A DNA stretch of 64,000 bases from an uncultured cyanobacterium (GCA_963744145.1 CAVUSO010000001.1:4224001-4288000); one strand, 5' to 3'; counted from the first letter of the stretch, positions 6,853 to 59,049 are shown. Numbers and translations: made by a program. Notes: generated by a model from the letters alone, not told the origin.

Positions 6853-8190
6853 TTATGCTACTACTGCTTCGGGAGTAGGTTGTTCCAGAAAAATTTCTCC
6901 CGATGGATCATCATATCCATAGAGTTCCGCATAACGACCCCAATCCGTGGCAGTTTTTAATTGTCGTTGTGCTTCCTGGGGACTAAAGTGACTTTCGAGA
7001 ATGTCTAAAATTAGTTCTTCAGAAATCCGTTGATTGCGTTTAGCTTGGAGCAGACGATTGATTTGTTGCACTAAACGAATATGAGTAAGTAGTTGTTCGC
7101 GCACAATTTGTTTGCGATCGTCAATGCTACCTTCAATAAATTTAGATCCTAAGGAGGTGAGACTAATATCCCCCTCCGCTAATTTGACAAAATCTAGCAA
7201 TTTCGCACCTTCAACGATCGGCAAAATTTCATCTACCTCTAATTGCAATTCTTGAGCTAGACGATATAAATCCTCATTTTGTCGATCTTCTAATAATTCC
7301 AACAAACCAGCGATCGAACCAACTCGGACATGGGGTAAAGATTGATATTTTTGCGGAACTGGAGAATCTGGTTCGGTGACAGGATCGACAGATGTTTGAG
7401 TTTCGGGCATTAAATCGGGGTTGGTCAGGATTTTATAGACTTGATCGACTAACGCTTGAAAACTGGGGCTTTGGCGATCGCGATAATGGGGTAAGGAGAC
7501 AGATAATTCTGCTCGTACTCGTCCAGGATTTCGTCCTAACACAATAATCCGATCGGCTAGAATTACTGCTTCTTCAATACTGTGGGTAACGATTAACACC
7601 GTTTGAGTGGGAATCCGACGTTCGATCCATAAATCCAATAGCTCAAAACGTAAGTTTTCCGCAGTTAACACATCCAGAGCTGAAAATGGTTCATCCATGC
7701 ACAATAATTCTGGTTCTACCGCTAAAGCTCGGGCAAAACCAACCCTTTGACGCATTCCTCCAGAAAGTTCTTTGGGGTAAGCATTTTCAAATCCATCTAA
7801 CCCAATAATATCAATCATCCGTAGGGCTTTTTGTCGGCGTGATTCTGGTGGTTCTCCCTTCGCTTTTAGTCCTAGTTCCACATTTTCCAATACCGTTAAC
7901 CAAGGATAAAGAGCAAAATTTTGAAAAACGATCGCCACACCAGAATTTAACCCAAGCAGAGGACGATTATGATAAACTACCTGACCATTTGTGGGCTGAT
8001 TTAACCCAGCAATCATCCGCATAATCGTCGATTTACCTGAACCCGAAGGACCTAATAAGGCCACAATCTCTCCGATATGGAGTTCGAGGTTAATATTTTC
8101 CAAAATGGTAATTTTCTGGCCGTTTGGTTGCTGATAAGACTTACTGACTTCTTCTAGCTTGATCAGGAGTTGGTTTTCTGCTTTAACCAT
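6853..8190 (-). CDS. Nitrate/sulfonate/bicarbonate-type ABC transporter ATP-binding protein with C-terminal associated domain
   Basis: GPSGSGKS, LSGGMRQRV, MDEPFSALD and DWGRYAEL. Confidence 0.9.
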   Translation of the reverse strand: MVKAENQLLIKLEEVSKSYQQPNGQKITILENINLELHIGEIVALLGPSGSGKSTIMRMIAGLNQPTNGQVVYHNRPLLGLNSGVAIVFQNFALYPWLTVLENVELGLKAKGEPPESRRQKALRMIDIIGLDGFENAYPKELSGGMRQRVGFARALAVEPELLCMDEPFSALDVLTAENLRFELLDLWIERRIPTQTVLIVTHSIEEAVILADRIIVLGRNPGRVRAELSVSLPHYRDRQSPSFQALVDQVYKILTNPDLMPETQTSVDPVTEPDSPVPQKYQSLPHVRVGSIAGLLELLEDRQNEDLYRLAQELQLEVDEILPIVEGAKLLDFVKLAEGDISLTSLGSKFIEGSIDDRKQIVREQLLTHIRLVQQINRLLQAKRNQRISEELILDILESHFSPQEAQRQLKTATDWGRYAELYGYDDPSGEIFLEQPTPEAVVA

Positions 8191-8465
8191 GATGATTTCC
8201 CTGTTCCCTAAAATATTTTTAATTTACCCACAGCAAGCATCGGTTATTCTGGTCTTCTGGTCAATATCTTAAGATTAGAACTTTTGATGATTTTCTTAAT
8301 TGAGAAATAGTCATTTCACCCCTCCCTAAATTGGCCTATTTACACGATTATAATCTCAATGTAAACTAAGAATAAATTAAGGGTGTTGGGGATCAGATCA
8401 GACAGTCCCAAATTTAAGGTTGTTTAATCAGGTAGAGTGAAATTGGTGATGACTTAAACGCGCAT

Positions 8466-10621
8466 TTCTTCACTGAACCATATTAATATATAGTTGATCT
8501 GTTGGCTGCATAGATGGTGAGGGCAAAGCATTTCGGTATTATTATTCTTCCCTTCGACTACGCTCAGGGTAAACGCTTCAGTTATGATTTATGCACCGAA
8601 ATGCTTTGCCCCTACAAGTTAACTGAACTGGATTGAATTATATATTATTTTTCAAGCCAACTAGGTTCAGTCAGCGCCCCTTACTTTTTGTCCGAGATCC
8701 TGTAGGGGTGAAGCATTCGGGCGATAATTGAGCGTTCAAACCAGTAATATTATACCCGAATGCTTCACCCTGCTTTTGCGCCGAGATCCCCAAAAATATT
8801 CTTAACTGAACCCTATTAATATATAGTTGATCTGTTGGTTGCATGGATGGTGAGGGCAAAGCATTTCGGTATTATTATTCTTCGCTTCAGTTATGATTTA
8901 TGCACCGAAATGCTTTGCCCCTACAAGTTAACTGAACTGGATTGGATTATATATTATTTCTCAATCCAACTAGGTTCCGTCGGTGCCCCTTGCCTTTTGT
9001 CCGAGATCCTGTAGGGGTGAAGCATTCGGGCGATAATTGAGCGTTCAAACCAGTAATATTATACCCGAATGCTTCACCCTGCTTTTGCGCCGAGATCCCC
9101 AAAAATATTCTTAACTGAACCCTATTAATATATAGTTGATCTGTTGGCTGCATAGATGGTGAGGGCAAAGCATTTCGGTATTATTATTCTTCCCTTCGAC
9201 TACGCTCAGGGTAAACGCTTCAGTTATGATTTATGCGCCGAAATGCTTTGCCCCTACAAGTTAACTGAACTGGATTGAATTATATATTATTTTTCAAGCC
9301 AACTAGGTTCAGTCAGCGCCCCTTACTTTTTGTCCGAGATCCTGTAGGGGTGAAGCATTCGGGCGATAATTGAGCGTTCAAACCAGTAATATTATACCCG
9401 AATGCTTCACCCTGCTTTTGCGCCGAGATCCCCAAAAATATTCTTCACTAAACCCTATTAATATATAGTTGATCTGTTGGTTGCATGGATGGTGAGGGCA
9501 AAGCATTTCGGTATTATTATTCTTCGCTTCAGTTATGATTTATGCACCGAAATGCTTTGCCCCTACAAGTTAACTGAACTGGATTGGATTATATATTATT
9601 TCTCAATCCAACTAGGTTCCGTCAGTGCCCCTTGCCTTTTGTCCGAGATCCTGTAGGGGTGAAGCATTCGGGCGATAATTGAGCGTTCAAACCAGTAATA
9701 TTATACCCGAATGCTTCACCCTTCGACTACGCTCAGGGTAAACCCTGCTTTTGCGCCGAGATCCCCAAAAATATTCTTAACTGAACCCTATTAATATATA
9801 GTTGATCTGTTGGCTGCATGGATGGTGAGGGCAAAGCATTTCGGTATTATTATTCTTCGCTTCAGTTATGATTTATGCACCGGAATGCTTTGCCCCTACA
9901 AGTTAACTGAACTGGATTGGATTATATATTATTTCTCAATCCAACTAGGTTCCGTCGGTGCCCCTTGCCTTTTGTCCGAGATCCTGTAGGGGTGAAGCAT
10001 TCGGGCGATAATTGAGCGTTCAAACCAGTAATATTATACCCGAATGCTTCACCCTGCTTTTGCGCCGAGATCCCCAAAAATATTCTTAACTGAACCCTAT
10101 TAATATATAGTTGATCTGTTGGCTGCATGGATGGTGAGGGCAAAGCATTTCGGTATTATTATTCTTCCCTTCAGTTATGATTTATGCGCCGAAATGCTTT
10201 GCCCCTACAAGTTAACTGAACTGGATTGGATTATATATTATTTCTCAATCCAACTAGGTTCCGTCAGTGCCCCTTGCCTTTTGTCCGAGATCCTGTAGGG
10301 GTGAAGCATTCGGGCGATAATTGAGCGTTCAAACCAGTAATATTATACCCGAATGCTTCACCCTGCTTTTGCGCCGAGATCCCCAAAAATATTCTTAACT
10401 GAACCCTATTAATATATAGTTGATCTGTTGGCTGCATGGATGGTGAGGGCAAAGCATTTCGGTATTATTATTCTTCCCTTCGACTACGCTCAGGGTAAAC
10501 CCTTCAGTTATGATTTATGCACCGAAATGCTTTGCCCCTACAAGTTAACTGAACTGGATTGAATTATATATTATTTTTCAATCCAACTCGGTTCCGTTAG
10601 TGCCCCTTGCATTTTGCCGAG
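8466..10621. repeat. Tandem array of ~6.5 units of 309 or 333 bp, each with an mfd 3'-end copy, two REP hairpins and two MITE-end-like motifs
   Basis: Marker tgtaggggtgaagcattcggg occurs at 8701, 9010, 9343, 9652, 9985 and 10294 (spacings 309/333/309/333/309). Confidence 0.97.
8551..8574. repeat. 24-bp small dispersed insert ccttcgactacgctcagggtaaac (also 9193-9216, 9720-9743, 10477-10500)
   Basis: Present in some array units and absent from others, accounting for the 333 vs 309 bp unit lengths. Confidence 0.9.
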
Positions 10622-13600
10622 CCAATCAATTAGATAATCAAGTTGTTTATCTGCACTTAATACTCCCATTCCTCTGACAGTTACTTTCCCTGGTGTATAA
10701 ACAAATTTGGGATGTAAATGTTCTGGCAGATTTGCTATTAATAATTTCCATCCAGGTTCTGCCATTGGTGTTTCTAAGACTATATGTTGTTTTCCTTCCG
10801 GTTTAATCCGCGAAAAACCGACTTTCTTACCCAGTTGTTTTAGTTCCATTACTCTTAATAATTGAGTAGCAGGAAGAGGAATATTACCGTAGCGATCGCA
10901 CCATTCCGAAGCGATCGCTGTTAATTCACCTTTTGATGTAGCAGCAGCGACCGCACGATAAGCACTCATTTTTTGATCTAAATCTGGAATATAATCAGCC
11001 GGAATAAAGGCAGTTAAACTCAAATCAATTTGGGTATCATCAACTTGGGGAATTTCCTGACCTCTAATTTCTCGAATTGCTTCTTGTAACATTTCTGTAT
11101 AAAGATCAAATCCAATTGCATCCAATTGACCTGATTGTTCAGCTCCCAAAATATCTCCGACCCCGCGAATTTCCATATCGCGCATTGCTAACTGATATCC
11201 CGAACCTAATTGGGTAAATTCTTGAATCGCTCGCAATCTTTTTCTAGCATCATCACTTAAAGCTCCTGTACCATGTTCACCAGCAGGATAAAATAACCAA
11301 GCATGGGCTTGAATTCCAGCTCTTCCTACTCTACCGCGCAATTGATAAAGTTGAGCTAATCCAAACCGATGAGCATCTTCTATTAAAATAGTATTTACTC
11401 GGGGAATATCTAACCCAGATTCAATAATTGTCGTACAAATTAAAATATCGGCTTCACCATTACTAAAACTGAGCATAGTAGCTTCCAATTCTGATTCAGC
11501 CAATTGACCATGAGCGATCGCAATTCGCGCTCCTGGGATCATTAATTGTAACTTAACGGCAATTTCCTCAATCCCTTCAATCCGAGGGACTACATAAAAC
11601 ACCTGACCTCCCCGATCTAATTCTTGTCGAATTCCGGTCCGAACTGCATCAGGATGATAAGGAGCTAAATGAGTTTGAATGGGACGACGTGAGGGAGGTG
11701 GAGTAGTAATCAAACTCATCTCCCGAATTCCAGACAATGCCATATATAATGTGCGCGGGATCGGTGTAGCTGTTAATGTCAATACATCTACTTGAGCTTT
11801 GAGACTTTTAATCTTTTCTTTTTGAGTGACTCCAAACCGTTGTTCTTCATCTACTACCAACAGTCCCAAATCCTTAAAATTAACTCCCTTACCTAAAATT
11901 GCATGAGTCCCCACTACTACATCTAACTCTCCAGTCGCTAAACGTCGTTGAATGTCCCGTCGTTCATCAGCAGACCGAAAACGATTTAATAGTCCCACAT
12001 TAATTGGGTAAGGAGCAAAACGTTCTTTTAAAGTGTGATAGTGCTGCTGAGTTAGAATTGTGGTAGGAGCCAATAAAGCCACCTGTTTACCAGCAGTAAT
12101 AGCTTTAAAAATACTTCTAATCGCTACCTCAGTTTTGCCAAAACCCACATCCCCACAGACTAAACGATCCATGGGTTGGTTTGATTCCATATCTCGTTTG
12201 ACATCTTGGGTTGCTTTCAACTGATCGGGAGTTGGTTGATAATGAAACGAATCTTCTAATTCCTCTTGCCAAGGTAAATCAGGTGGATAAGCATAACCTT
12301 GTTGTTGCGCTCTTTTAGCATAAAGCTTCAGCAAATCAACTGCTAATTTTTTAATGGCTTTTCTAGCCCTACTTTTAGTATTCTCCCAAGCTTTCCCGGT
12401 TAATTTACTTAATTCTGGTGCTTTATCACCTGCGGTCCGATAGCGAGATAATGATCCCAACTGATCAGCTGCGACTCTGAGTAAACCATCAGCATACTTC
12501 ACTACTAAATATTCGCGAGTTTCATTATTCAGGGTGAGACTTTCCAATTTGAGAAATTTCCCTACCCCATGACGTTTGTGAACGACATAATCTCCTTGAC
12601 TTAATTTATTGGGATCAACTTGTTGAGAAGCAGCACGACGACGTTTCCGAATATAGCCCACACTTGCTAAAACGTGCTGACCATAAAATTCCCGATCGGT
12701 GACGATGATCAGTCGGAAGGTGGGGAGAAGAAAACCTTCTAATTCCGCTAAACCACTATATTTCAGAGCGATCGGGATATGTTGGGTATGGAGTTTATCG
12801 ATCGCGGGATAGTCGTGGGGATTAGGAATAAATTGGGCAGGACAATCATGTTCTTGTAATAAAGACACACTCCGACTAGGTTGAGCAGAAATCAGAAAGA
12901 CCGAAAACCCTTGAATAATTTCACTCCGAATCGTTTCAGCAATTTTAGCAAATTGGTGGGGCATTACCGGTAAAGGACGACTCGCTAAATTCATTGGTTG
13001 ATAATTTTCTAGCGATCCCCGTTGACTGCGGTCTTCTACTAATTCCGATAGAAATATCCGCTCCCATTTAGCTGTAGCTTCCAAAGAATCGGCAAAATTG
13101 CGGTGCATTTTCAGAAACTGGTGGTTTGATAAGTCAGCACCTATAGTTAATTGTTGCCATTGTGCTTCAGTATGTTCCACCCAACGCAATCCGTGAGCGC
13201 TACATTGAGATACTTCATCGATCGCAATCAGGGTATCTGGAGGAAGATAGTCAAGTATACTAGCAGGTTGGGTAAATACCATTCCCAATAACTCAGACAG
13301 ACTTGGTTCTGAATCGAGATCAGACTCAAGTTGAGCTAAAACAATTGACCGAAAATCTGTCGGAGTCAGGGTAAGGTGATTAATTTTATCGAGCGATCGC
13401 TGGGTGGAGGGATCAAATTCTCGTAACTGTTCCAAATTATCCCCAAACCACTCTAACCGGACTGGTAGTTCTGCTGATACTGGGAATACATCAACTATAT
13501 CCCCACGCCGACTCCATTGACCTTCTGTTTCTACTAAGGCTACTCTTTCGTAACCTAATCGAGCTAGTTGGTTGTTAATCTCCTGAGAATCCAATGACAT

Positions 13601-42595: not shown

Positions 42596-44824
42596 ATGCT
42601 AGGTTTGCGCTACGAATCAATCCTAGACCTGGTTACCTTCACCACCGAAAAAAGTAAAAATTCTACTTTTCTACCCATCAAAATTTTTACCAAATTAGTC
42701 CAATTCTGTCAACCTTTAATTCTAGCATTATGTGCTGCAACTGCGGAAATTCTTTTTTTGCGTGGTGTCGGGACAGGGGCACTTTTACTAACAGCGATGC
42801 TCCTCCAACCAGCAGTTTTATTAATGGGAATAACCGGAGTAATCGCAGCAGTTACCTTTGCTAAAATTGCTCAACTTGGACAGAACTATCTCGATCGAGG
42901 TCCATTTCTCTTTAACCCACTTCTAGCAGGTTTAAGTGTCGGTTACCTATTTCAACCAGGAGCAGCTTCTTTATTTCTCGCTGGAGTAGCAGGAATATTA
43001 GCTTTTATTCTCACCTGGACTCTATCCCATATCTTCCGAACTTTCTTATTTTTACCTGTCTTAAGTTTACCCTTTATCATCGTCAGTTGGGTAGTACATC
43101 TAGCTGCATTTCGTTATGCTGGATTACAACCAGCAATTATTCCTGCTCATGTTTATTCCATTGGTTTACCAATCTGGATGGAAGGATTCTTGAGAACTTT
43201 AGGGTTGATTTTTTTCCTCCCTAATATCTGGGTAGGAATTGTCGTCGCAGGATTACTATTAGTCAACTCACGCATCCAATTTTTATTAGCAATAGGTGGT
43301 TATGCGTTAGGAACTTCCATTCGCGGTATTCTCACAGGAACATTTATTTATGTCTATTATGATCCAGCAGCATTAAATTTTGTATTAGTTGCATTAGCGA
43401 TCGGTGGTTTTTATCTCCTTCCCTCCATCCGAAGTTATGCGATCGCAGGTTTAGCAATTGGATTAGTTGCAGTATTAAGCGAAGCAGTGAGTGTATTTTG
43501 GGCAGCTTCTGGGTTACCAGTTCATGCGTTACCTTATAATTTAGTCACCTTATTATTGTTGTATGTATTGGGATTAGTAGGATATCGTTGGTTAACTAGA
43601 TATCCTCAACCAACTCCAGAACAAACTCTCGATTATGAATTAACTGCTCGATTAAGATATCAAGGTACGGGAAAAACAATTTCCTTACCTTTTTCTGGTC
43701 GTTGGTTAGTTTGGCAAGGTTTTCATGGTCAATGGACTCATCAAGGTTTGTGGTGTTATGCTTATGATTTTGTGATTCAAGATGAGTCTGGTTCTACTTA
43801 TCGTGATGATGGATTTAATCTGAAAGATTATTATGCTTATGGTAAACCAATCCTCTCTCCAGTTCGAGGTTGGATCGTTCGAGTCATTAGTGATTTACCA
43901 GATTGTGCGATCGGTAATATTGATCAGGAACATAATTGGGGTAATCATATAATTATTTACGATGAACGAGGTTTTTATGTCGAAATATCCCATTTTGCTC
44001 AACATAGCATTACCGTAAAATCAGGCGATCGCGTAGAAATTGGCACTTTATTAGGTCGTTGTGGTAATTCTGGTTATTCTTCCCAACCACATATTCATAT
44101 TCAAGTCCAACTTAGCGCCGAATTAGGTGCAGCAACAGCACTATTTAGTTTTGCTAATCTGATGGTAGATGGTGAATTTAGAGCCGAAGCTACCCCATCA
44201 GAAAATACTATATTAGAACCAGTAGCAAGCGATCGCGCTCTCGCTAAAGCTTTAACTTTCCCCCTTGATTCTAGTTTCGATTTTACTGTTACTCAAAAAG
44301 AAAAAATCGTTGATCATCTCTCTTTAACTACCCGGATCACAGGAGATGGTTGGTTTTATCTAGATTCGGGTAAAGCCAAATTATACTTTAGTCGAGATGA
44401 GTACGGATTTATCTTTCATCGATTAGATGGTAATGATCCTAACTTAGCCTTATTATTAACAGCAATTCCTCGATTACCCCTAGCTAGACGTGAACCCGGA
44501 AATACATGGTCTGATTATCTTCCCGTCGGGATGATGATTACTGGAATTCGACAAATGGTTTACTTATTTGCTAGTTCCTTTGTACCAGAGTTAGCTTCAG
44601 CTCGCTATACTGGTGAATGGATTTCAAATGAAACTTTAGTAGGAGCAGTCACCATCCCAGGAATCAAGAATAAAGTATTGACATCTGCTACTTTTGCTCA
44701 AAATGGAGAAATTCTCAGAGTCGGTGTCGGTCAGCGATCGCTAGTACGTCAAGATTTACAGGTTGTCACCCAGAAATCCCACCGTTGTTTAGGAGTCGGG
44801 ATGAATGGAAGTACCGTTGGTTAG
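42596..44824 (+). CDS. Urea-transporter-like membrane domain fused to an M23 peptidase-like domain
   Basis: About 10 hydrophobic segments (FNPLL, LSLPF, ALPYN), then THQG....YDF, WGN, SHF and GNSGYSSQPHIHIQ. Confidence 0.78.
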   Translation: MLGLRYESILDLVTFTTEKSKNSTFLPIKIFTKLVQFCQPLILALCAATAEILFLRGVGTGALLLTAMLLQPAVLLMGITGVIAAVTFAKIAQLGQNYLDRGPFLFNPLLAGLSVGYLFQPGAASLFLAGVAGILAFILTWTLSHIFRTFLFLPVLSLPFIIVSWVVHLAAFRYAGLQPAIIPAHVYSIGLPIWMEGFLRTLGLIFFLPNIWVGIVVAGLLLVNSRIQFLLAIGGYALGTSIRGILTGTFIYVYYDPAALNFVLVALAIGGFYLLPSIRSYAIAGLAIGLVAVLSEAVSVFWAASGLPVHALPYNLVTLLLLYVLGLVGYRWLTRYPQPTPEQTLDYELTARLRYQGTGKTISLPFSGRWLVWQGFHGQWTHQGLWCYAYDFVIQDESGSTYRDDGFNLKDYYAYGKPILSPVRGWIVRVISDLPDCAIGNIDQEHNWGNHIIIYDERGFYVEISHFAQHSITVKSGDRVEIGTLLGRCGNSGYSSQPHIHIQVQLSAELGAATALFSFANLMVDGEFRAEATPSENTILEPVASDRALAKALTFPLDSSFDFTVTQKEKIVDHLSLTTRITGDGWFYLDSGKAKLYFSRDEYGFIFHRLDGNDPNLALLLTAIPRLPLARREPGNTWSDYLPVGMMITGIRQMVYLFASSFVPELASARYTGEWISNETLVGAVTIPGIKNKVLTSATFAQNGEILRVGVGQRSLVRQDLQVVTQKSHRCLGVGMNGSTVG

Positions 44825-46314: not shown

Positions 46315-46424
46315 ACAGCGATCGCCATCTCAATATTTCGCCCAGTTCTCCGCTGATGTCCTCCAAAATATTCTTAACTGAACCGTATTGCGGTATGATT
46401 AACTGTCAGAACGCTATTCCCAGA

Positions 46425-46694
46425 GCGAGGCGATCGCAGTGAAACAATAATAAAGATGCAACAATCGCGTGAGCTGATTCGCAGTTATGCCGCTTATGCT
46501 CTGAGTGCCTTTAAGAATTTTAGTGCAGCAGACATAGAAGAAATTACCCTGAAATTTGGGTTAAATATTGGTGGTAAAGCCGGAATTCCTTTTATCACAG
46601 AAGGAACTGCCGAAAGCAATTTAGAAATCGAAGTTAAATATAAATTTTCTAAGGCGACTTAAAAAAAATTAAATAAAAAACGATTAACTGTTAA
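46425..46694 (+). pseudogene. 5'-truncated copy of the 52792-53175 gene and its downstream DNA
   Basis: Matches ~52938-53207, starting at a HIP1 site. Confidence 0.88.
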
Positions 46695-46738
46695 GTGCTT
46701 TTTTATTGGTATTCGAGGAAGGCGATCGCTCCAAATGT

Positions 46739-47659
46739 ATGACCAATGATTTTCCCATCTTGTTTGTTACGGAAAAAGCTTATGAAGAATCCTCGAATGA
46801 AATTTTAGGGAGCAAGTATAAGTTTTGGTTCTATCACGAAGAATTTGGTCGTTGTCTTTACAAACAAAACCGAGTCAACTTGGGAGAAGATTGGGCAGAG
46901 AAAGTCGCATCAGAATTGTGTGAATTAATCGGACTTCCTCACGCTGTTTATGAATTGGCTTCAACTTGGAAAGGCGATCGCGGTGTAATTTCACCCAACT
47001 TTTTACCACAAGGGGGGACGCTTGTACATGGTAACGAACTGCTTACTTCAATTGTGCCAAATTACCTAACATTTAGCACCTACGGCGCATCACAACATAC
47101 AATTGATGTAGTTTTAAGAGTTATTGCAGGCAGTTCTGTAAATTTACCCATTAATTGGACACCGCCCTCTGGTATCCAAAAAGCAGTGGATGTATTTGTT
47201 GGCTATCTTTTGTTAGATGCGTGGATTGGTAACGGAGATCGTCACCATGAAAACTGGGGGATTGTCCGAATAAAACCGTCATCTACTTCAGAAGAAATGG
47301 AACACTTAGCACCTACTTACGATCATGCCTCAAGTTTAGGACGTGAACTCTCTGATGAAAAAAGGCAGAAACGATCTATACTGGATTATACCGACAAATG
47401 TTTTTCAGCGTTTTATGGTAGTGTTGATGATAAAAAGAGCCTGAAAGTTTTTGATACATTCTCCCAAGTTGTTCATCGTTATCCCCAAGCAGCTAGTGTG
47501 TGGTTGACGCGACTTGAAAATATATCAGAAGCCAATATATTAGATATTTTTAATCGCATTAATTGCTCACGGATCTCTCCCAATGCCAGTAATTTTGCTC
47601 AAAAAATTCTGGAAATTAACAAACACAGGATACTAACCTTATGGGAAACACTACCTTAA
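46739..47659 (+). CDS. HipA-like kinase
   Basis: GSKYKFW, EDWAEK, IGNGDRHHENWG and LAPTYDHASSLG. Confidence 0.85.
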   Translation: MTNDFPILFVTEKAYEESSNEILGSKYKFWFYHEEFGRCLYKQNRVNLGEDWAEKVASELCELIGLPHAVYELASTWKGDRGVISPNFLPQGGTLVHGNELLTSIVPNYLTFSTYGASQHTIDVVLRVIAGSSVNLPINWTPPSGIQKAVDVFVGYLLLDAWIGNGDRHHENWGIVRIKPSSTSEEMEHLAPTYDHASSLGRELSDEKRQKRSILDYTDKCFSAFYGSVDDKKSLKVFDTFSQVVHRYPQAASVWLTRLENISEANILDIFNRINCSRISPNASNFAQKILEINKHRILTLWETLP

Positions 47660-47669
47660 AAACACTAAA

Positions 47670-48435
47670 AATGAAGACATCAAAAACACTATTTTTAGCT
47701 TGGCAAGACTATTTTAGTCGCGCTTGGTTTACCATAGGTCGGTTAACATTTGACGGAGATATTTATAAATTTGTCTATACGCAAGGTGTAAAAGAAGCTC
47801 AAGAAAAATGTGCTTTTAATCCTTTATCTTCCTTTCCATATTTAGATCAAGTCTATACATCAACTCACCTATTTCCAGTCTTTGCTAATCGGTTAATGTC
47901 GCGATCGCGTCCTGATTATTCCAGTTTTATTGAATCGTTAAATCTTTTACCTGATAATAACGAACCAATGGAAGTTTTAGCCCGCAGTGGTGGAGAACGA
48001 GAAACAGATACACTTGCGGTTTTTCCTTGTCCAGAAGTTGATGAAAAGGGACAATACAATCTCTATTTTTTCTCGCATGGGTTGCGACACTTACCAACCA
48101 GTGCAATTGAGCGGATTAATCAGTTTGAACCTAGAGAAGAATTATGGTTAGCTCACGAATTTCAAAATTCTTACGATTATCAGGCTTTAACTTTAAATAC
48201 TAAAGACCATTACATTGTCGGTTATTGTCCGCGATATTTGCTGGCAGAAATTTTTGAATTGCTTCGGCAAAATTCCAGTCTAAAAGTGCGAGTAGAGCAA
48301 GTAAATAAATCTCCAACCCCACTTCAGTTTCGTCTGTTATGTAAAATGAGTGTCAATTGTAGAGATAATTTTTGTCCTTTCTCAAGTAGTCAATATCAAT
48401 CGCTGATTGTAGAAATTGCGATGAAATCTGCATAA
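47670..48435 (+). CDS. HIRAN-domain partner protein
   Basis: LFLAWQD, LFPVFANRL..RPDY and NSYD..A....VGYCPRY. Confidence 0.8.
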
Positions 48436-48453: not shown

Positions 48454-48557
48454 CAAGATTTACGCAAAATATCAACGCGATCGCATATACGGTATAATTA
48501 ACTGTCAGAACGCTATTCCTAGAACGAGGCTCGCTAACATAAAATGCGTAAGTCTTG
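48454..48557. mobile_element. 104-bp MITE-like element with 13-bp TIRs
   Basis: caagatttacgca ... tgcgtaagtcttg (1 mismatch); target duplication is weak. Confidence 0.55.
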
Positions 48558-48650: not shown

Positions 48651-51600
48651 TCATTTCCATTGATTACAAACTTCTTTTATAGAATCAACTACACCTCGCA
48701 TAGCTGTTTCTTCACCTAATGAAATAATAGCAGGATAAAGAGTTACTAAGTTTTTTATAAAGTCTTGTCTATTAGTAGATGCTAGGATGTGAAGATATAA
48801 CTTCCAATCAGAGAATGATAAATTAGATAAATCAAGACTATGGAGAAAACCATTGATTGCTTTTGCTTGATTTGGTTTAGAATTTATCTTAAAAATCTCA
48901 TTTTTCACTTGAGATAATAATTGTTCAGGTACGAATTTACTTAGACCATTCAATACCTCTGCCCGACTGGATTCATCCTGAATAGTGCGTGCCGCATCCA
49001 AGGCTTCGGCAAAATAGGCCCTATCAATCTGAGCAAGGGAACTCAATACCTCTGCCCGACTGGATTCATCCTGAATAGTGCGTGCTGCATCCAAGGCTTC
49101 GGCAAAATAGGCCCTATCAATCTGAGCAAGGGAACTCAATACCTCTGCCCGACTGTATTTATCCTGAATAGTACGTGCCGCATCCAATAAAACTGAGAAA
49201 TCTGCACCATCAATCTGAGCAAGAGATCTCAATACCAATGCCCGAAGGGATTCAGACTGAATAGCGCGTGCCGTATCCAATAAAACTGAGAAATCTGCAC
49301 TATCAATCTGAGCAAGAGATCTCAATACTAATGCTCGAAGGGGTTCAGACTGAATAGTGCGTGCTGCATCTAATGCTTCTCCAAAATAAGCACTATCAAT
49401 TTGAGCAAGGAATCTCAATACCTCTGCCCGACTGTATTTATCCTGAATAGCGCGTGCCGCATTCAATAAAACTGAGAAATCCGCACTATCAATCTGAGCA
49501 AGGGATCTTAATACCCATGCCCGCAAGAATTTATCCTGAATAGTGTGTGCCGCATCCAATAAAACTGAGAAATCCGCACTATCAATCTGAGCAAGGGAAC
49601 TCAATACCTCCGCCCGAATAGATTCAGACTGAATAGCGCGTACTGCATCCAATGCTTCGGCAAAATAGGCCCTATCAATCTGAGCAAGGGAACTTAATAC
49701 CTTTGCCCGAATAGATTCATCCTGAATAGCGCGTGCCGCATCCAATGCTTCTGTAAAACAGGCACTATCAATCTGAGCAAGGGAACTCAATACCTTTGCC
49801 CGAAGTGCCCGACGGGATTCATCCTGAATAGCGCGTGCCGCATCCAATGCTTCTGTAAAACAGGCACTATCAATCTGAGCAAGAGAACTCAATACCCATG
49901 CCCGAAAGGATTCATCCTGAAGAGCGCGTGTCGCATCCAATGCTTCGGCAAAATAGGCCCTATCAATCTGAGCAAGAGAACTCAATACTAATGCCCAAAT
50001 GAATTGATCCTGACTAGCTTGTGCTGCATCCAATGCTTCTGTAAAATAGGCATTATCAATCTGAGCAAGAGAACTCAATACTAATGCCCGATTTTTTTCA
50101 TCCTGAATAGCGCGTGCTGCATCTAATGCTTCGGTAAAATAGGCCCTATCAATCTGAGCCAGGGCACTCAATGCCTCTGCCCGATTTTTTTTATCCTGAA
50201 TAGCGCGTGCTGCATCCAATGCTTCGGTAAAATAGGCCCTATCAATCTGAGCCAGGGCACTCAATACTTCTGCCCGATTGGATTCATTCTGAATAGCGCG
50301 TGTCGCATCCAATGCTTCGGCAAAATAGGCCCTATCAATCTGAGCCAGGGCACTCAATGCCTCTGCCCGATGGTATTCATCCTGAATAGCGCTTATTTTT
50401 GTTAAAGCCTTCTTAAATAATGGTTTGGAAAAATAACAACATAATCCCTTAATCCATTCGGCTATTTTATGTTCATCTTGCATTTGCTCTACATAAGCCC
50501 AAGCTTGCTCTATTGTCCAAAATTTACCTTTGACAAATTCTTTGATCATGTCAATCGGTAGGTTTTCCAATAAACTGTTTAATGTTGCTGTAATTAAGGC
50601 ATACCGATATTGCAGAACAATAGAGCGGGTTTTGTCTTGCTCATATTGTTGTTCGGCGATCGCCCAAGCTCTAGCCACATCTTCCACAAAAATTGCTGGT
50701 TGACCAAGGCGATCGCAAGTTTCAAACCAAGCATTATGTCCTAAGCGATCGCTACTACCTAGAAGAGTATGAATTTCATCAATCCAACCAGCTTGCTCTA
50801 AGTGCCAAGTCAACTGACGATGAATATATCCATCATTCGGTAAATTATACCAAGATTTTTCCTCAGTTTTTTCTCGGTAACGTTCTAGAAATTGTTGATG
50901 AGCCAAAGATAAGCAAGAACAATTTTTATCCCTAGAGCCTAGAGAATTAAGCTTACCTTCTTCAATCAGACTCCGAGCCATATCGTGCATAAGGTCGTGG
51001 ATACGATAGGTTGGCTCATCCTCTAATGTAGTAACACCATCAGTCAGAAAAGAACGGTGTCGCAATAATGACAATCTTTGTTTAACTTGCACATTAGACG
51101 ACAAATTCCACAGAACCGAAGCAACCTCTAGGGTAAGATTAACATCTTCTGGCAAAATACCTAACCAGGCAAACTGTTCTAACTGTTCCTGATTCAGCCG
51201 CTTTAAACTTAAGTTGAAACAAACTTCCAAACTATGTTTACGCTGTTCTTGCTCATCTAAATCTTCCCATCTTTCCGATGACTGTAAAAGTTTAAATACT
51301 CTAGAAAACTCAGCCTTAAATTCAGCTCGTAATTCCGCCCAAGTTGAACCATCTTTGATTAAGTTAATCGCTAAATCCAGAGCTAATGGCAAATATCCCA
51401 ATACCTGAGCAAAGGCTTTTGCTTCTATTTGATCAGCATCTTTCCAATCTTTGCCTAACTTTCCTTTAATCAGTTCTAACGCTTCATCTTCGCTCATCAA
51501 ATCTAAAGAATAGTAATCAGCCTGAGCAATTCTTGCTTCCCTAGTTGTCACCAATACCCGACAACCTTCACCACCCACCTGAAACCATTTAGCATGATCT

Positions 51601-52754
51601 GCATTCCACACATCATCTACTACCAGCAACATTTGTTTTTCTGCTAACAAAGTTTGTAAATACTGAGTAGCTGATTCCTTAGTATTTGCACTAAATGCTT
51701 CCCGCGATCGATCAAGCTCTCGAATCCAATCCCCTAATAACTTCTGTAAATCCGGTTTTTGTCCTAAAGTTACCCAGAGAATTCCATCTTCAAACCGAGC
51801 ATTTACTTCTGGATCTCGCACTAGAGCCGCAGCTAAAACTGACTTTCCTAAACCTCCTAATCCAGCGATCGCGGTTACTACCAGAGTTTGTCCATTTCTG
51901 CCCAGAAGTTTTTCTTTTACTGCTTTGAGAGCATCTAACCGTTCCACGTAATTTTCTGGTAAGGGAATATGGGGAAACGACTTAGATTTCTGAGGTTTTC
52001 TTTGAGTAGAATAATTGAGAATGGGAATAGGTCGTCCACTGAGCAGGTGAACGGGTTCTTGACCACTTCCCTTTAATTGAATACAAATAAAAACGGTTAG
52101 TATACCAGCATAAATATTGCCATCATCAGCAGCTTGTTCCGGTTGGAGTCCTTGCAGCAACGCTTTAGTAAAAAGACCATGCTCTTGATCTTCATAAGCC
52201 TTTTCTTCGGCTCTACAAGCTGTAATTAAACAATAGTCAGGCTGACGATTAAAGCTTTTTAAAGTTGACTGTACTAAATCTTTGCTGAAGGTCTCAAGTA
52301 AAGCTCCTGCATGACAGCAATCTAAGAGAATTACTAAACTGCTGAGATCAGAATCGCTCACCAACTTATTCAAATCTTCTAATCGAATCAGCGTTTCCAT
52401 ATCTTTTTTAGCAGAATTGGAAGCAGCGAGAAAACCTTGTTTTTCTCCAGAAAGAGTAGTTATTTGAAAACCATGTCCTGCATAATAAACTAGAGCATCT
52501 TTCCGAGCAGCTTTTTCGAGCAGAAAAGTTTTTAGAGTTTGATAGAGATCGGCAGCTAGAACTTTTTGTGAGATAATCTCATAACGACTTTTCTCATTAA
52601 CCCATTTACAAGGAAACCGGACAACCTCTTGAAAAGCTCCAGACCGTTCTAGCAATTGAGCCATTTCCTCCGCATCAGTAACCGCTTTCTTTAAGGAAGG
52701 GAAACTAGGAGAGTCATATTGAGAAATACCGATTACCAGTGCATATCGCGTCAT
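48651..52754 (-). CDS. Caspase-like protease / NB-ARC NTPase / 31-aa helical repeat protein (bacterial NLR-like)
   Basis: AGHG and LDCC dyad, GLGGLGKS, VVDDVW, TTR, GYLPLAL, IHDL and ~15 C-terminal repeats. Confidence 0.9.
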   Translation of the reverse strand: MTRYALVIGISQYDSPSFPSLKKAVTDAEEMAQLLERSGAFQEVVRFPCKWVNEKSRYEIISQKVLAADLYQTLKTFLLEKAARKDALVYYAGHGFQITTLSGEKQGFLAASNSAKKDMETLIRLEDLNKLVSDSDLSSLVILLDCCHAGALLETFSKDLVQSTLKSFNRQPDYCLITACRAEEKAYEDQEHGLFTKALLQGLQPEQAADDGNIYAGILTVFICIQLKGSGQEPVHLLSGRPIPILNYSTQRKPQKSKSFPHIPLPENYVERLDALKAVKEKLLGRNGQTLVVTAIAGLGGLGKSVLAAALVRDPEVNARFEDGILWVTLGQKPDLQKLLGDWIRELDRSREAFSANTKESATQYLQTLLAEKQMLLVVDDVWNADHAKWFQVGGEGCRVLVTTREARIAQADYYSLDLMSEDEALELIKGKLGKDWKDADQIEAKAFAQVLGYLPLALDLAINLIKDGSTWAELRAEFKAEFSRVFKLLQSSERWEDLDEQEQRKHSLEVCFNLSLKRLNQEQLEQFAWLGILPEDVNLTLEVASVLWNLSSNVQVKQRLSLLRHRSFLTDGVTTLEDEPTYRIHDLMHDMARSLIEEGKLNSLGSRDKNCSCLSLAHQQFLERYREKTEEKSWYNLPNDGYIHRQLTWHLEQAGWIDEIHTLLGSSDRLGHNAWFETCDRLGQPAIFVEDVARAWAIAEQQYEQDKTRSIVLQYRYALITATLNSLLENLPIDMIKEFVKGKFWTIEQAWAYVEQMQDEHKIAEWIKGLCCYFSKPLFKKALTKISAIQDEYHRAEALSALAQIDRAYFAEALDATRAIQNESNRAEVLSALAQIDRAYFTEALDAARAIQDKKNRAEALSALAQIDRAYFTEALDAARAIQDEKNRALVLSSLAQIDNAYFTEALDAAQASQDQFIWALVLSSLAQIDRAYFAEALDATRALQDESFRAWVLSSLAQIDSACFTEALDAARAIQDESRRALRAKVLSSLAQIDSACFTEALDAARAIQDESIRAKVLSSLAQIDRAYFAEALDAVRAIQSESIRAEVLSSLAQIDSADFSVLLDAAHTIQDKFLRAWVLRSLAQIDSADFSVLLNAARAIQDKYSRAEVLRFLAQIDSAYFGEALDAARTIQSEPLRALVLRSLAQIDSADFSVLLDTARAIQSESLRALVLRSLAQIDGADFSVLLDAARTIQDKYSRAEVLSSLAQIDRAYFAEALDAARTIQDESSRAEVLSSLAQIDRAYFAEALDAARTIQDESSRAEVLNGLSKFVPEQLLSQVKNEIFKINSKPNQAKAINGFLHSLDLSNLSFSDWKLYLHILASTNRQDFIKNLVTLYPAIISLGEETAMRGVVDSIKEVCNQWK
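48950..50392 (-). repeat. 93-bp coding tandem repeats, ~15.5 copies
   Basis: Recurring ctatcaatctgagc motif; encodes LSSLAQIDxAxFxxxLDAARxIQ. Confidence 0.95.
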
Positions 52755-52791
52755 TCTGATAATTGACCTAAAATCATTTTGCTGTTAACCT

Positions 52792-53175
52792 ATGATAAAC
52801 CATTCTCTTGAGGGTACTATGTCCGAGATTCAAAAAATGCTATATACCGATGAAGATGGTAAAGAGTACGAAATCCTGATAGAAAATAAATCAGCAGTCA
52901 ATCTTCCTGATGCTGATGTTGATGAAGGACGTGGTTCGCGAGGCGATCGCAGTGAAACAATAATAAAGATGCAGCAAGCTCGTGAAATGATTCGCGGTTA
53001 TGCAGCTTATGCTCTGAGTGCCTTTAAGGATTTTGGGGTAGCAGAAATAGAAGAAATTACCCTGAAATTTGGGTTAAAGATTGGTGGTAAAGCCGGAATT
53101 CCTTTTATCACAGAAGGAACTGCTGAAAGCAACTTGGAAATCGAAGTTAAATGTAAATTTCCTAAGGGGACTTAA
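52792..53175 (+). CDS. CU044_2847 / Trypco1-like protease co-occurring protein (start probably 52819)
   Basis: EEITLKFGLKI.G.AG.PFITEG.AESNLEIEVK pattern; divergent from the caspase-NLR gene. Confidence 0.7.
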   Translation: MINHSLEGTMSEIQKMLYTDEDGKEYEILIENKSAVNLPDADVDEGRGSRGDRSETIIKMQQAREMIRGYAAYALSAFKDFGVAEIEEITLKFGLKIGGKAGIPFITEGTAESNLEIEVKCKFPKGT

Positions 53176-53340: not shown

Positions 53341-53919
53341 ATGAACAGTTTAACTCTCAACCTACCGCCTGTTCTCAAATTAACAGATGAGCAGTTTGAA
53401 CAATTGGCGGCTGTTAATGGCGATTTAGGTTTAGAATTGACACCGAAGGGAGAACTAATTGTTATGCCACCGACGGGAGGAGAAACCGGAAACCGAAATT
53501 TTGAGGCTTACATTGACTTGGGAATTTGGAACCGTCAAACTCTTTTGGGAAAAGCTTTTGATTCTTCTACAGGATTTCGATTACCTCAAGGTGGTACTCG
53601 TTCCCCTGATATTTCTTGGGTGACGATAGGACGTTGGAATAATCTTACTGAAGAGCAACGCAAGAAATTTTTGCCTTTATGTCCTGATTTTGCGATCGAA
53701 CTAGTTTCAGAAACAGATGATGTGGAAGAAACACGGGCAAAAATGCAGGAATATTTACAAAATGGGTTACGTTTGGGATGGTTGATTAATCCTAAACTCA
53801 GACAAGTGGAAATTTATCGCCCGAATCAAGAGGTAGAGGTTTTGGCATCTCCTACGACTTTATCGGGTGAGGATGTTTTACCAGGGTTTGTTTTAGATTT
53901 AGAGTTCATTTTTTCCTAA
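53341..53919 (+). CDS. Uma2 family endonuclease
   Basis: FDSSTGF, RSPD and CPDFAIELVS. Confidence 0.9.
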   Translation: MNSLTLNLPPVLKLTDEQFEQLAAVNGDLGLELTPKGELIVMPPTGGETGNRNFEAYIDLGIWNRQTLLGKAFDSSTGFRLPQGGTRSPDISWVTIGRWNNLTEEQRKKFLPLCPDFAIELVSETDDVEETRAKMQEYLQNGLRLGWLINPKLRQVEIYRPNQEVEVLASPTTLSGEDVLPGFVLDLEFIFS

Positions 53920-54044: not shown

Positions 54045-54332
54045 TCATCGTCAGTTGGGTAGTACATCTAGCTGCTTTTCGTTATGCTGGATTACAACCT
54101 CGCAGGTTTAGCAATTGGATTAGTTGCAGTATTAAGTGAAGCAGTGAGTGTATTTTGGGCAGCTTCTGGGTTACCAGTTCATGCGTTACCCTATAATTTA
54201 GTCACCTTATTATTGTTGTATGTATTAGAATTAGTAGGATATCGTTGGTTAACTAGATATCCTCAACCAACTCCAGTGTCGGTCAGCGATCGCTAGTACG
54301 TCAAGATTTACAGTTTGTCACCCAGAAATCCC
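54045..54332 (+). pseudogene. Three joined fragments of the urea-transporter/M23 gene
   Basis: 54045-54099 matches 43077-43131; 54100-54276 matches 43443-43619; 54277-54332 matches 44725-44780. Confidence 0.9.
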
Positions 54333-54827: not shown

Positions 54828-54912
54828 TGCTTGTCAATAGGTTTTGTAAAAATATTTTATAAAGCATCTAAACGCTATAACAACGTAATACCAATGTTTT
54901 CACGCCACACCG

Positions 54913-55015
54913 TGTAATGTTTCTACGCTCACCTGTAGAAATTTCTATGCTCACCTATAAAATTTTCTACGCTCACAAGATATAATTTCTACGCGGGACT
55001 ATATAATTTTCTATA
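54913..55015. repeat. Direct repeats TTTCTAYGCTCAC at exact 22-bp period (4-5 copies)
   Basis: Copies start at 54920, 54942, 54964, 54986 and 55008. Confidence 0.85.
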
Positions 55016-55347: not shown

Positions 55348-57168
55348 TTACCAAGGTAAATCTTGAGGTATTCCATAAGCTTGTTCTAATTGTTTCATAT
55401 ATGTATTTAATTTTCTCAAAACATAATCAGCAAGATTTCCGGGTGTAGTATCAATTGTGTAACAAAATTCTAAACAAATAATTTTATTGCTTGTTTCAAC
55501 TGTTATATCTGGTTTAATTCTTAAATGTGGATGATACTGTTCACATCTAAAGTGAAAGTTTAATCCAGATAATACTTCTTCAAGTGCTAAACAGATAGCT
55601 TTATTAAATGGTTGATCTCCTATTTTTCCTGGTTTAGATGCAGATGTAGCTTCATTAATTTTTTTAAAGGCTTCTCTTGAACTATTTAATGCTTGTCCAA
55701 CTGTGCCACTTTTACGTTTACCAGTAGGATTTTGACTACCAGATAATTGCAAATATAAAGGAGTTCTTTTCAATGTTTCATTTGCTAATTTTTTACCAAA
55801 CCAATGCTTAGGTACATTATATTTTTTTGGATCTTTAAAATCTTCTCTTGAAATTTTAATTTTTGCATCATCAGCGTAAGCAACAATACAACTGATTAAT
55901 GCGTTTGTTGGTAAATACATAATTTTTGTGGTTAACATACGGCTATTTAGAGCTAATGTTAAACGGTGAGGAGGTCAATCAGCTTTTCTTTGTGTATGTT
56001 CAATATAAGGCTGTAAAGGGTTATATTCAGCATTCCACATTTCATTGATATTTTCAGGAATTTGTTTAGCAAAACGTGCTACAACTCCTTCCGCTTCTGG
56101 ATAAGAAAATATAAACCAAACTTCTGTAGATTTTGGAATCGAGTTTTCAATTTGCTTAATATAATTAGTTCTTTGTTCCCAAAGAGTTCTAACATTTTTT
56201 AAATAATCTCTAATCAAATGTTTTTCTTGAGGTTTTTGCTGATAGTCATCTTTCAATTGTTCAAAATCATTATCATTTAATTGAAACTCATGACAACTTT
56301 TTCCACTATTAAAAAATTCAATGGTTTTTCGGGCAATATTAGGATATTCTTCCAGAGGTGGACCCGTAAATTCTATATAAGGAAGTCTACTATGAAACAT
56401 GGTACTAGAGTAATTTTTTGCAAAACTTTGCATTTTTTCTAAATCTTTACGAACTGTTACAGGCCAAATAATCAAAATTGCATATTTACGAAGGAAACTA
56501 TTTAAATCTCTAAAAAAACCTTTCACTTCCTCTTCTTGCTCATCTCCTAAGTTTTCTAAATACTCAATTACGATACATAATTTATTATGATTTTTTTTAT
56601 TCTCTGAAAAAAATTTGATAGCCTCTTGTTTAATTGTTTTGATTAATTCTTTAAGTTTTAATCCAGAATTATCTTCTTTTATTAACTCACTAGCATCAAT
56701 TGATACTATTTCTTGTATCATCATATATTGTTGAAATTTTAATGAACTAATGAATGTAGATTTTCCAACACCGGAAACACCATATAAAAACAATAGATAA
56801 CCATTATTTCTCATGTCTTTTAAAACAGGTATAATTAGTTCTTCAAATTTAGTAACTCGAACAATTAAATCAGGAAGCCTAGATTTCTTTTCTCCAATTT
56901 CTTCTAAAATTTCTTCATAAGTTAATGGCAAGAATAAATCTAAGTTTTCTCTATTATTTGTTTTAGAGTTTGAAATTATTATTTGGGGGGAAACTAATTT
57001 TTCTTCAACAACAATTTGTTCGGCTGATAAATTACCATTTTCATTTACTGAATCTGATTTGAAAATATCAATTTTTGACTGATCTTCTTGAGATTTAGAA
57101 GAACCGTCAAAGTCAGGAAATAATAAAGGTAATTGATCTGGATTGTCTGATCTTTTTCTTCTGGACAT
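55348..57168 (-). pseudogene. P-loop ATPase with putative PD-(D/E)xK C-terminus, interrupted by one in-frame TGA at 55975-55977
   Basis: GVSGVGKS; RKAD*PPHRLTLALNSRMLTTK reads in frame into the 196-aa ORF; IKPDI....ICLEF; very AT-rich. Confidence 0.75.
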
Positions 57169-58470: not shown

Positions 58471-59049
58471 ATGAACAGTTTAACTCTCAACCTACCGCCT
58501 GTTTTCAAATTAACAGATGAGCAGTTTGAACAATTGGCGGCTGTTAATGGCGATTTAGGTTTAGAATTGACAGCGCAGGGAGAACTAATTATTATGCCAC
58601 CGACGGGAGGAGAAACAGGCGATCGCAATTTTGAAATTGATGGACAGCTTTGGTTGTGGAATCGTCAAAATTTTCTGGGGAAAGCCTTTGATTCTTCTAC
58701 AGGGTTTCGATTACCAAATGGCGCAACTCGTTCTCCCGATGTGGCTTGGATCAAAATTGAAAGATGGGAAGCTTTAACCCCGACACAAAGAAAGAAATTT
58801 TTACCGCTATGTCCTGATTTTGCGATCGAACTGGTTTCAGAAACAGATGATGTGGAAGAAACGCGAGCAAAAATGCAGGAATATTTACAAAATGGATTGC
58901 GGTTGGGATGGTTGATTAATCCTAAACTCAGAGAAGTGGAAATTTATCGCCCGAATCAAGAGGTAGAGGTTTTGGTATCTCCTACGACTTTATCGGGTGA
59001 AGATGTTTTACCAGGGTTTGTTTTAGATTTAGAGTTCATTTTTTCCTAA
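58471..59049 (+). CDS. Uma2 family endonuclease, paralog of 53341-53919
   Basis: Same motifs; ends are near-identical to the paralog. Confidence 0.9.
   Translation: MNSLTLNLPPVFKLTDEQFEQLAAVNGDLGLELTAQGELIIMPPTGGETGDRNFEIDGQLWLWNRQNFLGKAFDSSTGFRLPNGATRSPDVAWIKIERWEALTPTQRKKFLPLCPDFAIELVSETDDVEETRAKMQEYLQNGLRLGWLINPKLREVEIYRPNQEVEVLVSPTTLSGEDVLPGFVLDLEFIFS

Follow-up and report, generated by a model that had tools for sequence, protein, structure and literature searches.

A divergent caspase-NB-ARC sensor and Trypco1 gene pair in an uncultured cyanobacterium: a candidate cell-death immune module with a variable HEAT-like repeat array

What does a caspase-like protease do when it shares one polypeptide with an ATPase switch and a long array of similar repeats, and when its gene lies head-to-head with that of a small protein of the Trypco1 family? 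The question is raised by a gene pair at positions 48651 to 53175 of a 64,000-nucleotide stretch of DNA from an uncultured cyanobacterium (GCA_963744145.1 CAVUSO010000001.1:4224001-4288000), referred to here as the window. On balance we favor the interpretation that the two genes form an immune module of the regulated-cell-death (abortive-infection) type, in which the repeats would sense a ligand, the caspase-like domain would become active, and the Trypco1 protein would be cut and form a pore. The larger gene, which we call the sensor, contains the following features, with coordinates counted from the first letter of the window and protein positions in amino acids (aa).

48651..52754, minus strand: sensor gene, 1367 aa, with caspase-like protease, NB-ARC, helical domain, HEAT-like array and C-terminal cap (open reading frame (ORF) call and Pfam)
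52137..52751, minus strand: Peptidase_C14 domain (caspase/metacaspase-like), aa 2-206 (Pfam E=1e-18)
52473-52475 and 52314-52316, minus strand: codons of the catalytic residues His94 and Cys147, respectively (alignment to metacaspase-4, 6w8s)
51267..51932, minus strand: NB-ARC (AP-ATPase) module of the signal transduction ATPases with numerous domains (STAND) class, aa 275-496 (Pfam E=9.5e-27)
50754..50903, minus strand: helical domain resembling APAF1_C, aa 618-667 (Pfam, E=6.1e-06; 26.6 bits, cut-off 22.8)
48951..50405, minus strand: repeat array, aa 784-1268, with 15 complete HEAT-like units of 31 aa and a partial 16th (Tandem Repeats Finder, translation, AlphaFold2, Foldseek)
48654..48950, minus strand: non-repeat C-terminal cap, aa 1269-1367 (helical in the AlphaFold2 model, kept in relatives)

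Judged from its sequence, the sensor has the layout of a STAND protein resembling the nucleotide-binding oligomerization domain-like receptors (NLRs), with an N-terminal effector, a central NB-ARC and C-terminal repeats. An initial annotation of this DNA had proposed just such a layout, and the ORF, the Pfam matches and the motif alignment bear it out; the HEAT_2 match falls under the Pfam cut-off. Arabidopsis metacaspase-4 (6w8s, E=0.002) is the best solved relative, and its catalytic His and Cys pair with His94 and Cys147 of the sensor. When the sensor was aligned with 21 relatives that also bear a caspase domain (alignment A1), H94, G95, D145 and C147 were invariant in 22/22 sequences, and the dyad described earlier as intact is indeed so. 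The NB-ARC motifs comprise the Walker A P-loop at G298-S305 (GLGGxGKS), Walker B at D380/D381, TTR at 403-405 and GxLPL at 453-457, the last of which lies inside the NB-ARC match, together with an MHD-type motif at 589-591, downstream of it; all are invariant or nearly so in the same alignment. Because both the catalytic and the ATPase motifs are kept in this way across relatives, the sensor gene appears fully functional. The D-x-C motif of metacaspases and orthocaspases is likewise retained (D145, C147), but residue 113 is Asn where at least 90% of the relatives have Asp, and the sequence does not reveal which P1 residue the protease prefers. The best NCBIfam match of the caspase domain is the EACC1-associated caspase NF047832, at 88.7 bits and below the cut-off of 140.

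The repeat array is the most distinctive part of the sensor. Tandem Repeats Finder places it at 48950-50392 with a period of 93 nt, 15.4 copies, 84% matches and 1% indels. The full units span aa 784-1251, the 16th is partial, and unit 7 carries a 3-aa insertion. Sixteen five-residue patches, each followed by AE, AL, AW or AK, had been listed previously, and they correspond exactly to unit positions 9-13 and 14-15. The accompanying description of the repeats as near-identical was overstated; DNA identity between units averages 81% (range 63-96%), and they are similar only. At the amino acid level Psim is 0.79 over the 15 units, above the threshold of 0.70 that serves as the criterion of high internal repeat conservation in the available text of PMC13449251.

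Variation among the units is concentrated at few positions. Entropy within the array peaks at unit positions 12, 11 and 15. When changes are counted on minimum spanning trees of the distinct codons, a codon at positions 9-12 or 15 has on average 4.2 non-synonymous changes, compared with 1.19 for a codon at the remaining positions (3.5-fold), with synonymous changes being equal (0.60 versus 0.65). Two choices of rows underlie these counts, either the 15 units with the unit-7 insertion removed or 15 ungapped matches, the latter set omitting unit 7 and taking in the partial 16th. The pairwise Nei-Gojobori ratio of non-synonymous to synonymous substitution (dN/dS) is 1.4-1.5 at positions 9-12 and 15 and 0.5-0.6 elsewhere. 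The hypervariability of these positions is real. Positive selection is borderline and not established, because the comparison of non-synonymous to synonymous (N:S) counts, 21:3 at the variable positions against 31:17 elsewhere, gives a Fisher p of 0.052 here and is flat in a Pseudanabaena relative, L001 (14:4 versus 30:10, p=1, though dN/dS is 1.35 versus 0.69). Of the per-position selection analysis proposed in the initial annotation, the excess of amino acid change stood, with borderline statistical support in this gene.

These numbers also fit another explanation, in which the variable positions are merely the least constrained exposed sites of an array homogenized by gene conversion, and no adaptive reprogramming takes place. 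The dN/dS of 1.4-1.5 is not clearly greater than 1, the count tests in both genes are those just given, and the proportion of synonymous differences (pS) between units is about 0.25, so that the array is not freshly shuffled. Some mosaicism argues in the other direction, the middle segment of unit 11 being identical to that of unit 14, and unit 15 being the nearest relative of unit 8. Other exposed positions on the variable helices also change far less than the variable ones do, and the structural model and the relatives add two further points on this side.

AlphaFold2 predicts aa 742-1367, run as a single sequence, to be an all-helical solenoid with two helices per unit (mean pLDDT 79.7), helix 1 consisting of unit positions 10-21 and helix 2 of positions 25-31 plus 1-5 of the next unit. 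Foldseek matches this model to the HEAT solenoids of RanBP5, mTOR, CAND1 and SF3B1 at E ~1e-6. Positions 11, 12, 15, 18 and 19 fall within a 120-degree arc (80-200 degrees, at 100 degrees per residue) and the conserved positions 13, 14, 16, 17, 20 and 21 occupy the opposite arc of helix 10-21, a geometry obtained by arithmetic on the DSSP string rather than from model coordinates. In the model, therefore, one face of a single helix carries the variable positions, and the suggestion that they might share a face is supported by the predicted structure. In an alignment, the units also fall into register with those of bGFP-A, an engineered binder of the HEAT-like type (4xl5_C, E=3e-4), whose scaffold, according to the available text (PMC3754942), is randomized at positions 18, 19, 22, 23, 26 and 30 on the concave face that contacts the target. 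These correspond to unit positions 10, 11, 14, 15, 18 and 22, and the overlap with the variable set is partial.

A search with aa 1-780 of the sensor scored 7996 candidates, of which 417 proteins reached E<=1e-3, and the best 120 of the 417 were examined. The closest full-length relative among the matches listed is 59% identical, and the close relatives of both the sensor and the Trypco1 gene are all cyanobacterial. A hidden Markov model (HMM) of the unit finds between 1 and 26 matches each in 116 of the 120 relatives; being derived from the sensor's own units, it does not collect strongly differing ones. Thirty-five relatives have 10 or more full units. The position most often ranked in their top five by entropy within the protein is 15 (30/35), followed by 12 (28), 11 (24) and 9 (15), and 28 of these relatives reach a Psim of 0.70 or higher. 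The recurrence of positions 11, 12 and 15 in 24-30 of 35 relatives, and their overlap with the binding surface of a homologous engineered scaffold, are not what one expects of sites that are simply unconstrained, and we regard that explanation as unlikely, albeit one with some weight.

The N-terminal modules are swapped on a common NB-ARC and repeat chassis. Precomputed Pfam assignments, with names verified on five examples, give a caspase in 22 of the 120 listed relatives, EAD4 in 21, TIR in nine, and trypsin plus EAD10 in three. A scan of genome contigs with the N-terminal 780 aa recovered two loci, L001 and L002, both with other N-terminal modules and without Trypco1; the motif of the C-terminal cap terminates the ORFs of both. 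At L001 (Pseudanabaena), a transposase gene is inserted at 9964-10731 into the array of the homologous NB-ARC gene, and the units are highly similar in both halves. At L002 (Nostoc; 7737-11877), the unit is longer (~39 aa), several consecutive copies are identical, and the frame is broken inside the array, which may reflect a frameshift or the misassembly of near-identical repeats.

Could the variable patch instead have been written by a diversity-generating retroelement? According to the available text of PMC10907252, retroelement-diversified sensors with Trypco and caspase neighbors occur in multicellular bacteria. However, all window ORFs of at least 260 aa were scanned and none gave a reverse-transcriptase match, differences from the unit consensus show no adenine specificity (in all codons G 62, T 41, A 38, C 34; in the variable ones G 21, A 15, T 12, C 11), and the variation is between tandem units and not between a template and a target. 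With no reverse transcriptase among those ORFs and no adenine bias, we rejected this candidate, the probability of which we put close to nil.

The second gene of the pair lies on the opposite strand, and the following features are relevant to it.

52755..52818, no strand: divergent intergenic region between the two start codons, 64 bp (sequence)
52819..53175, plus strand: Trypco1 (Pepco, CU044_2847 family) gene, 118 aa (Pfam, NCBIfam)
52894..52947, plus strand: Trypco1 linker, predicted disordered, rich in Pro, Asp and Arg, aa 26-43 of 118, candidate cleavage region (pLDDT <50; most variable part of the 120-homologue alignment)

Assignment to the family is by PF19493 (E=2.3e-18, 67.1 bits against a cut-off of 24.6) and NF041216 (83 bits against 23). 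An alternative in-frame ATG at 52792 would give a protein of 127 aa and a gap of 37 bp; the Met encoded at 52819 is the first residue in 115 of 120 homologues, and GAGGG lies upstream of that ATG, so we take the protein to be 118 aa and the intergenic gap 64 bp. With either start codon the partner is head-to-head less than 70 bp away, in agreement with the initial annotation. A promoter-like match is present in the intergenic region on the minus strand (52788-52759); counts from the promoter and terminator scan were at or below shuffle expectation in the scanned region.

The alignment of 120 homologues has a conserved N-terminal segment, a variable linker of Pro and charged residues, and a highly conserved core that stops 3-8 residues short of the C-terminus. 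The AlphaFold2 model (67 sequences, pLDDT 64) predicts two strands (3-10 and 16-23), disorder over 26-43, a helix spanning 41-70 and a long hairpin from 76 to 113. In the strands TLKFGLKI and LEIEVKCKF, hydrophobic residues alternate with polar or charged ones, the pattern expected for a barrel with a charged lumen. Likeness of the model to haemolysin-type hairpins was considered and set aside, the matches being weak (E>=1.1, probability <=0.28) and not evidence. The Trypco1 sequence had no match below E=0.3 among solved structures.

Where might such a protein be cut? The Pfam match ends at residue 123 of 127 and leaves four residues, so there is no 20-aa C-terminal tail of the kind discussed below. 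This is common in the family; a profile search gave 309 representatives at E<=1e-3, of which 136 reach the end of the core, and fewer than 10 residues follow the core match in 110 of these and at least 10 in 26. Since the tail is absent and the linker is predicted to be disordered and exposed, the linker is the likeliest cleavage site, and the model suggests that a cut would most likely fall there, between the N-terminal hairpin and the core of helix plus hairpin. Alignment position 47 is Arg or Lys in 75 of 120 homologues, and at position 50 Met, Lys and Tyr each occur in 31 of them. Identification of the cleaved residue through conservation was dropped, as the linker positions are too weakly conserved.

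The pairing of Trypco1 with a caspase-like protease is not peculiar to this genome. Searching plasmids by tblastn gave seven records with Trypco1, all of them cyanobacterial, and at 7/7 best plasmid loci the gene is head-to-head with one that starts in Peptidase_C14. Six of the seven paired genes run on into an nSTAND1 NTPase and then WD40, pentapeptide or other regions, and the seventh is a caspase-only ORF of 207 aa. One plasmid (L007) has a second Trypco1 gene that is again head-to-head with a caspase gene. Searches with two tail-bearing Trypco1 representatives returned the same seven plasmids and no other protease context. Across eight loci, the identity between two Trypco1 proteins correlates with that between the corresponding caspase domains (r=0.97; 28 non-independent pairs). 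The association of Trypco with proteases, given in the initial annotation as background, is conserved as a head-to-head arrangement in all of the best plasmid loci.

Published work on this family bears directly on the function of the partner. Trypco1 was named by Kaur et al. for its co-occurrence with trypsin-like peptidases (PMC7159879). A 2025 preprint (10.1101/2025.11.14.688446) describes, in its available text, that SsPepco forms 9- to 10-mer beta-barrels and is a pore-forming toxin once cleaved, that the trypsin domain of SsAvs4 cuts it after Ile97, that a truncation exactly at this point is toxic, and that deletion of Pepco abolishes toxicity. The proposal that the protease cleaves its small partner was thus largely anticipated in print, because the preprint shows a trypsin-linked Pepco to be switched on by cleavage. 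For the present locus that proposal is supported in part: it matches the SsPepco/SsAvs4 experiments, but the subfamily lacks the tail that is cut there, and the protease is of the caspase type.

Trypco1 could instead be an adaptor or regulator of the protease, neither substrate nor effector, with killing or signaling proceeding through other substrates or through self-processing. Earlier comparative papers (PMC10907252, PMC7159879), as far as their available text goes, do treat Trypco domains as adaptors, and the 120-homologue alignment has no conserved P1 residue. Set against this are the SsPepco results just described, in which the protein is cleaved, the truncated form is toxic and toxicity is lost without it, and the predicted retention of the long amphipathic hairpin in the Trypco1 considered here. 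We think an adaptor role improbable.

From the architecture, the intact motifs, the structure and variability of the repeats, the conserved pairing and the predicted folds, we infer the following course for the immune module proposed at the outset. The array would be an alpha-solenoid whose variable residues (positions 9, 11, 12 and 15, and more weakly 18/19) provide a surface for ligand binding. A foreign protein, most likely derived from a phage, would on binding release the NB-ARC switch, and the released sensor would oligomerize and bring the N-terminal caspase-like domains together, thereby activating them. The activated protease would then cut the divergently encoded Trypco1, most likely in the disordered linker, and the cut protein, with its long amphipathic beta-hairpin, could assemble into a membrane-permeabilizing beta-barrel pore that kills the cell before the phage completes its cycle.

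Several points weigh against this interpretation, in addition to the borderline selection test and its flat counterpart in L001. No Avs match was found among the PADLOC-DB 2.0 (2023) models for the NTPase and sensor, which gave only the generic 'caspase' and 'TPR' models. Confidence in the Trypco1 model is moderate, and a fold search with it returned no matches at E<=0.001. As Trypco1 is without a C-terminal tail, the tail-cleavage route of SsPepco does not fit this subfamily, and in the 120 homologues no linker residue is strictly conserved, the linker here having both Arg and Asp. Another plasmid Trypco1 gene (L010) sits amid fragments disrupted by insertion sequences and is without an annotated caspase gene. 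Finally, the cleavage experiments reported in the available text of the preprint (10.1101/2025.11.14.688446) concern the trypsin-linked case, not caspase-linked Trypco1.

The DNA at lower coordinates of the window than the pair adds the apparent trace of a second copy.

46391..46697, plus strand: apparent remnant of a second module copy (repeat families D2 and D10; junction sequence)

Within it, an ORF of 68 aa (46456..46662) duplicates the 3' half of the Trypco1 gene, together with 35 nt of flank (92% over 273 nt). It is joined at a CGAGGC microhomology, beside a GCGATCGC site, to a 41-nt copy (93%) of the 3' flank of the sensor gene, the original of which is at 48490-48530. This looks like the scar of a second module copy that lost 4.4 kb. 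The remnant ORF is changed at three invariant or nearly invariant family positions (K96N, C121Y and P124S), and compared with the full gene its ratio of non-synonymous to synonymous differences (pN/pS) is 0.43. The octamer GCGATCGC occurs 68 times in the window, against 0.26 expected, which together with the cyanobacterial relatives marks the DNA as that of a cyanobacterium; four sites are in the body of the sensor gene (50656, 50709, 50745, 51865), and there are none within the repeat array (48950-50392).

The truncated remnant ORF begins exactly at the conserved Met after the linker. If a cut in the linker arms Trypco1, this ORF would resemble the activated fragment. In a more speculative form of our interpretation, the 31-aa arrays of this clade of cyanobacterial NB-ARC proteins would be a natural combinatorial library of binders that gain specificities for new phages by exchange of units, on the very scaffold that is randomized in engineered binders at almost identical positions, and the linker cut would remove the N-terminal hairpin as a plug. 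We offer this combination only tentatively and consider it rather unlikely.

Between the Trypco1 remnant and the 41-nt repeat lie genes for a HipA_C-like kinase and a HIRAN-domain protein (46706-48435, overlapping by 19 nt), which match the PADLOC candidate defence system PDC-M03A (E=8e-111) and PDC-M03B (E=2e-103). The module is located in a defence-type gene island that also carries MazF-like and other small toxin-antitoxin genes, Uma2 genes and an insert of low guanine-plus-cytosine (GC) content. MoxR ATPase and vWA genes of the VMAP ternary system, the original Trypco context, were absent from the 34 window ORFs that were scanned against Pfam.

These surroundings are pertinent to a further possibility, that the pair belongs to an internal programme, for example one by which cells of a multicellular cyanobacterium die under stress or during development, and that the signal it senses comes from the host and not from a phage. 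Such systems are reported as enriched in multicellular prokaryotes (PMC7159879), and Evans et al. bring up a link to stress responses in the case of EACC1-DnaK fusions (10.1101/2025.11.14.688446), both according to the available text. A changing foreign ligand is better suited by variable repeats on a binding face, and the island with its candidate defence system and toxin-antitoxin genes, as well as the location of relatives on conjugative plasmids, likewise points away from a host signal. We accordingly give an internal programme little credence.

Several other features of the island were observed. Three pieces (43077-44780) of a urea-transporter/M23-peptidase gene (42596..44824) recur side by side at 54045-54332 as an internally deleted copy with 98% identity; with pieces of this gene at both ends, the ~9.5-kb module island is thus bracketed by urea-transporter/M23-peptidase sequence. 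Two Uma2-family genes, at 53341-53919 and 58471-59049, are ~94-95% identical and 5130 nt apart, and the segment between them contains the gene of a MazF-like toxin, a tandem repeat of 22 nt and a stretch of low GC content. The tandem repeat has four to five copies (TTTCTACGCTCAC...) at 54898-55007, downstream of the MazF-like gene. The low-GC stretch (55348-57168, minus strand; GC 0.27-0.32 versus ~0.40) encodes a 397-aa P-loop ATPase with weak nSTAND6/AAA similarity and a 196-aa protein weakly like CoiA nucleases. Neither protein has a PADLOC match, and the pair may be an uncharacterized two-gene defence candidate.

Protease-gated pore effectors and NLR-like sensors are now regarded as part of a logic shared by bacterial and eukaryotic immunity, and this locus adds to it in three respects. 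It provides a clean and intact case of a caspase-like, rather than a trypsin-like, protease paired with Trypco1/Pepco, it adds a HEAT-like type to the repeats of NLRs with unusually self-similar repeats, and it adds a subfamily of Trypco1 with an anatomy that points to cutting at another site; cleavage of an internal linker is potentially a new mechanistic twist. The module is small (two genes, ~4.6 kb) and suited to reconstitution in a laboratory strain, and its array is a tractable system for how exchange of repeats alters ligand specificity. Within the literature searched, we found no description of HEAT-like repeats on an NB-ARC chassis with a caspase-Trypco1 cassette, and none of an orthocaspase joined to NB-ARC in cyanobacteria.

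The closest published parallel is SsPepco-SsAvs4 of Streptomyces subrutilus. As described in the available account, it too has a small Trypco1-family protein next to a protease fused to a STAND sensor, an amphipathic beta-hairpin core, and a proposed course from sensor through proteolysis to pore and death. There, however, the protease is trypsin-like and the genes are co-directional, whereas here the protease is caspase-like (C14), the genes are divergent, and the sensor consists of NB-ARC plus HEAT-like repeats. Furthermore, SsPepco carries a charged, Pro-rich 20-aa tail after a conserved Ile, whereas the present Trypco1 has an internal disordered linker after its N-terminal hairpin. The EACC1-caspase systems (Kaur et al. 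2020; KrAvs12, Evans et al. 2025), again as far as the available text describes them, share the N-terminal caspase-like domain on a variable sensor and a small partner gene, the product of which is cleaved into a pore former; that partner is the single-transmembrane EACC1 and not Trypco1, and the NF047832 score of our sensor is below the cut-off.

The array itself has parallels of two kinds. The alphaRep binders and their natural parents, 31-aa HEAT-like repeats of the PBS-lyase type, have the same 31-aa period, align in register and are varied on the same helix according to the available text, with the randomized positions coinciding in part (11, 15 and 18 here), although in our case the array serves an NB-ARC protein as its sensor arm. 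High internal repeat conservation has been described for bacterial NLRs with WD or TPR repeats (Dyrka et al.; 10.1101/2020.01.06.895854; PMC13449251); the surveys, as given in the available text of PMC13449251, covered ANK, TPR, WD40 and LRR only, and the repeat here is a 31-aa HEAT-like one. Fungal NLRs with self-similar repeats (HET-E/HET-D/NWD) resemble the sensor in their three-part layout, in repeats that are more alike than structure requires, in having few variable positions on one surface, and in repeat numbers that vary among relatives (1-26 HMM matches here). In fungi, length polymorphism at the strain level and positive selection have been shown, whereas here p=0.052 and the relatives are at most 59% identical among the matches listed.

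Lastly, Apaf-1 and the plant NB-ARC NLRs share with the sensor the P-loop, Walker B, TTR, GxP and MHD motifs, the APAF1_C-like domain and C-terminal sensor repeats. Their protease is recruited through CARD and their repeats are WD40 or LRR, whereas in the cyanobacterial protein the protease is fused to the sensor and the repeats are HEAT-like. Activation of a protease by induced proximity, as in these proteins, is our working analogy for how the cyanobacterial sensor may operate.

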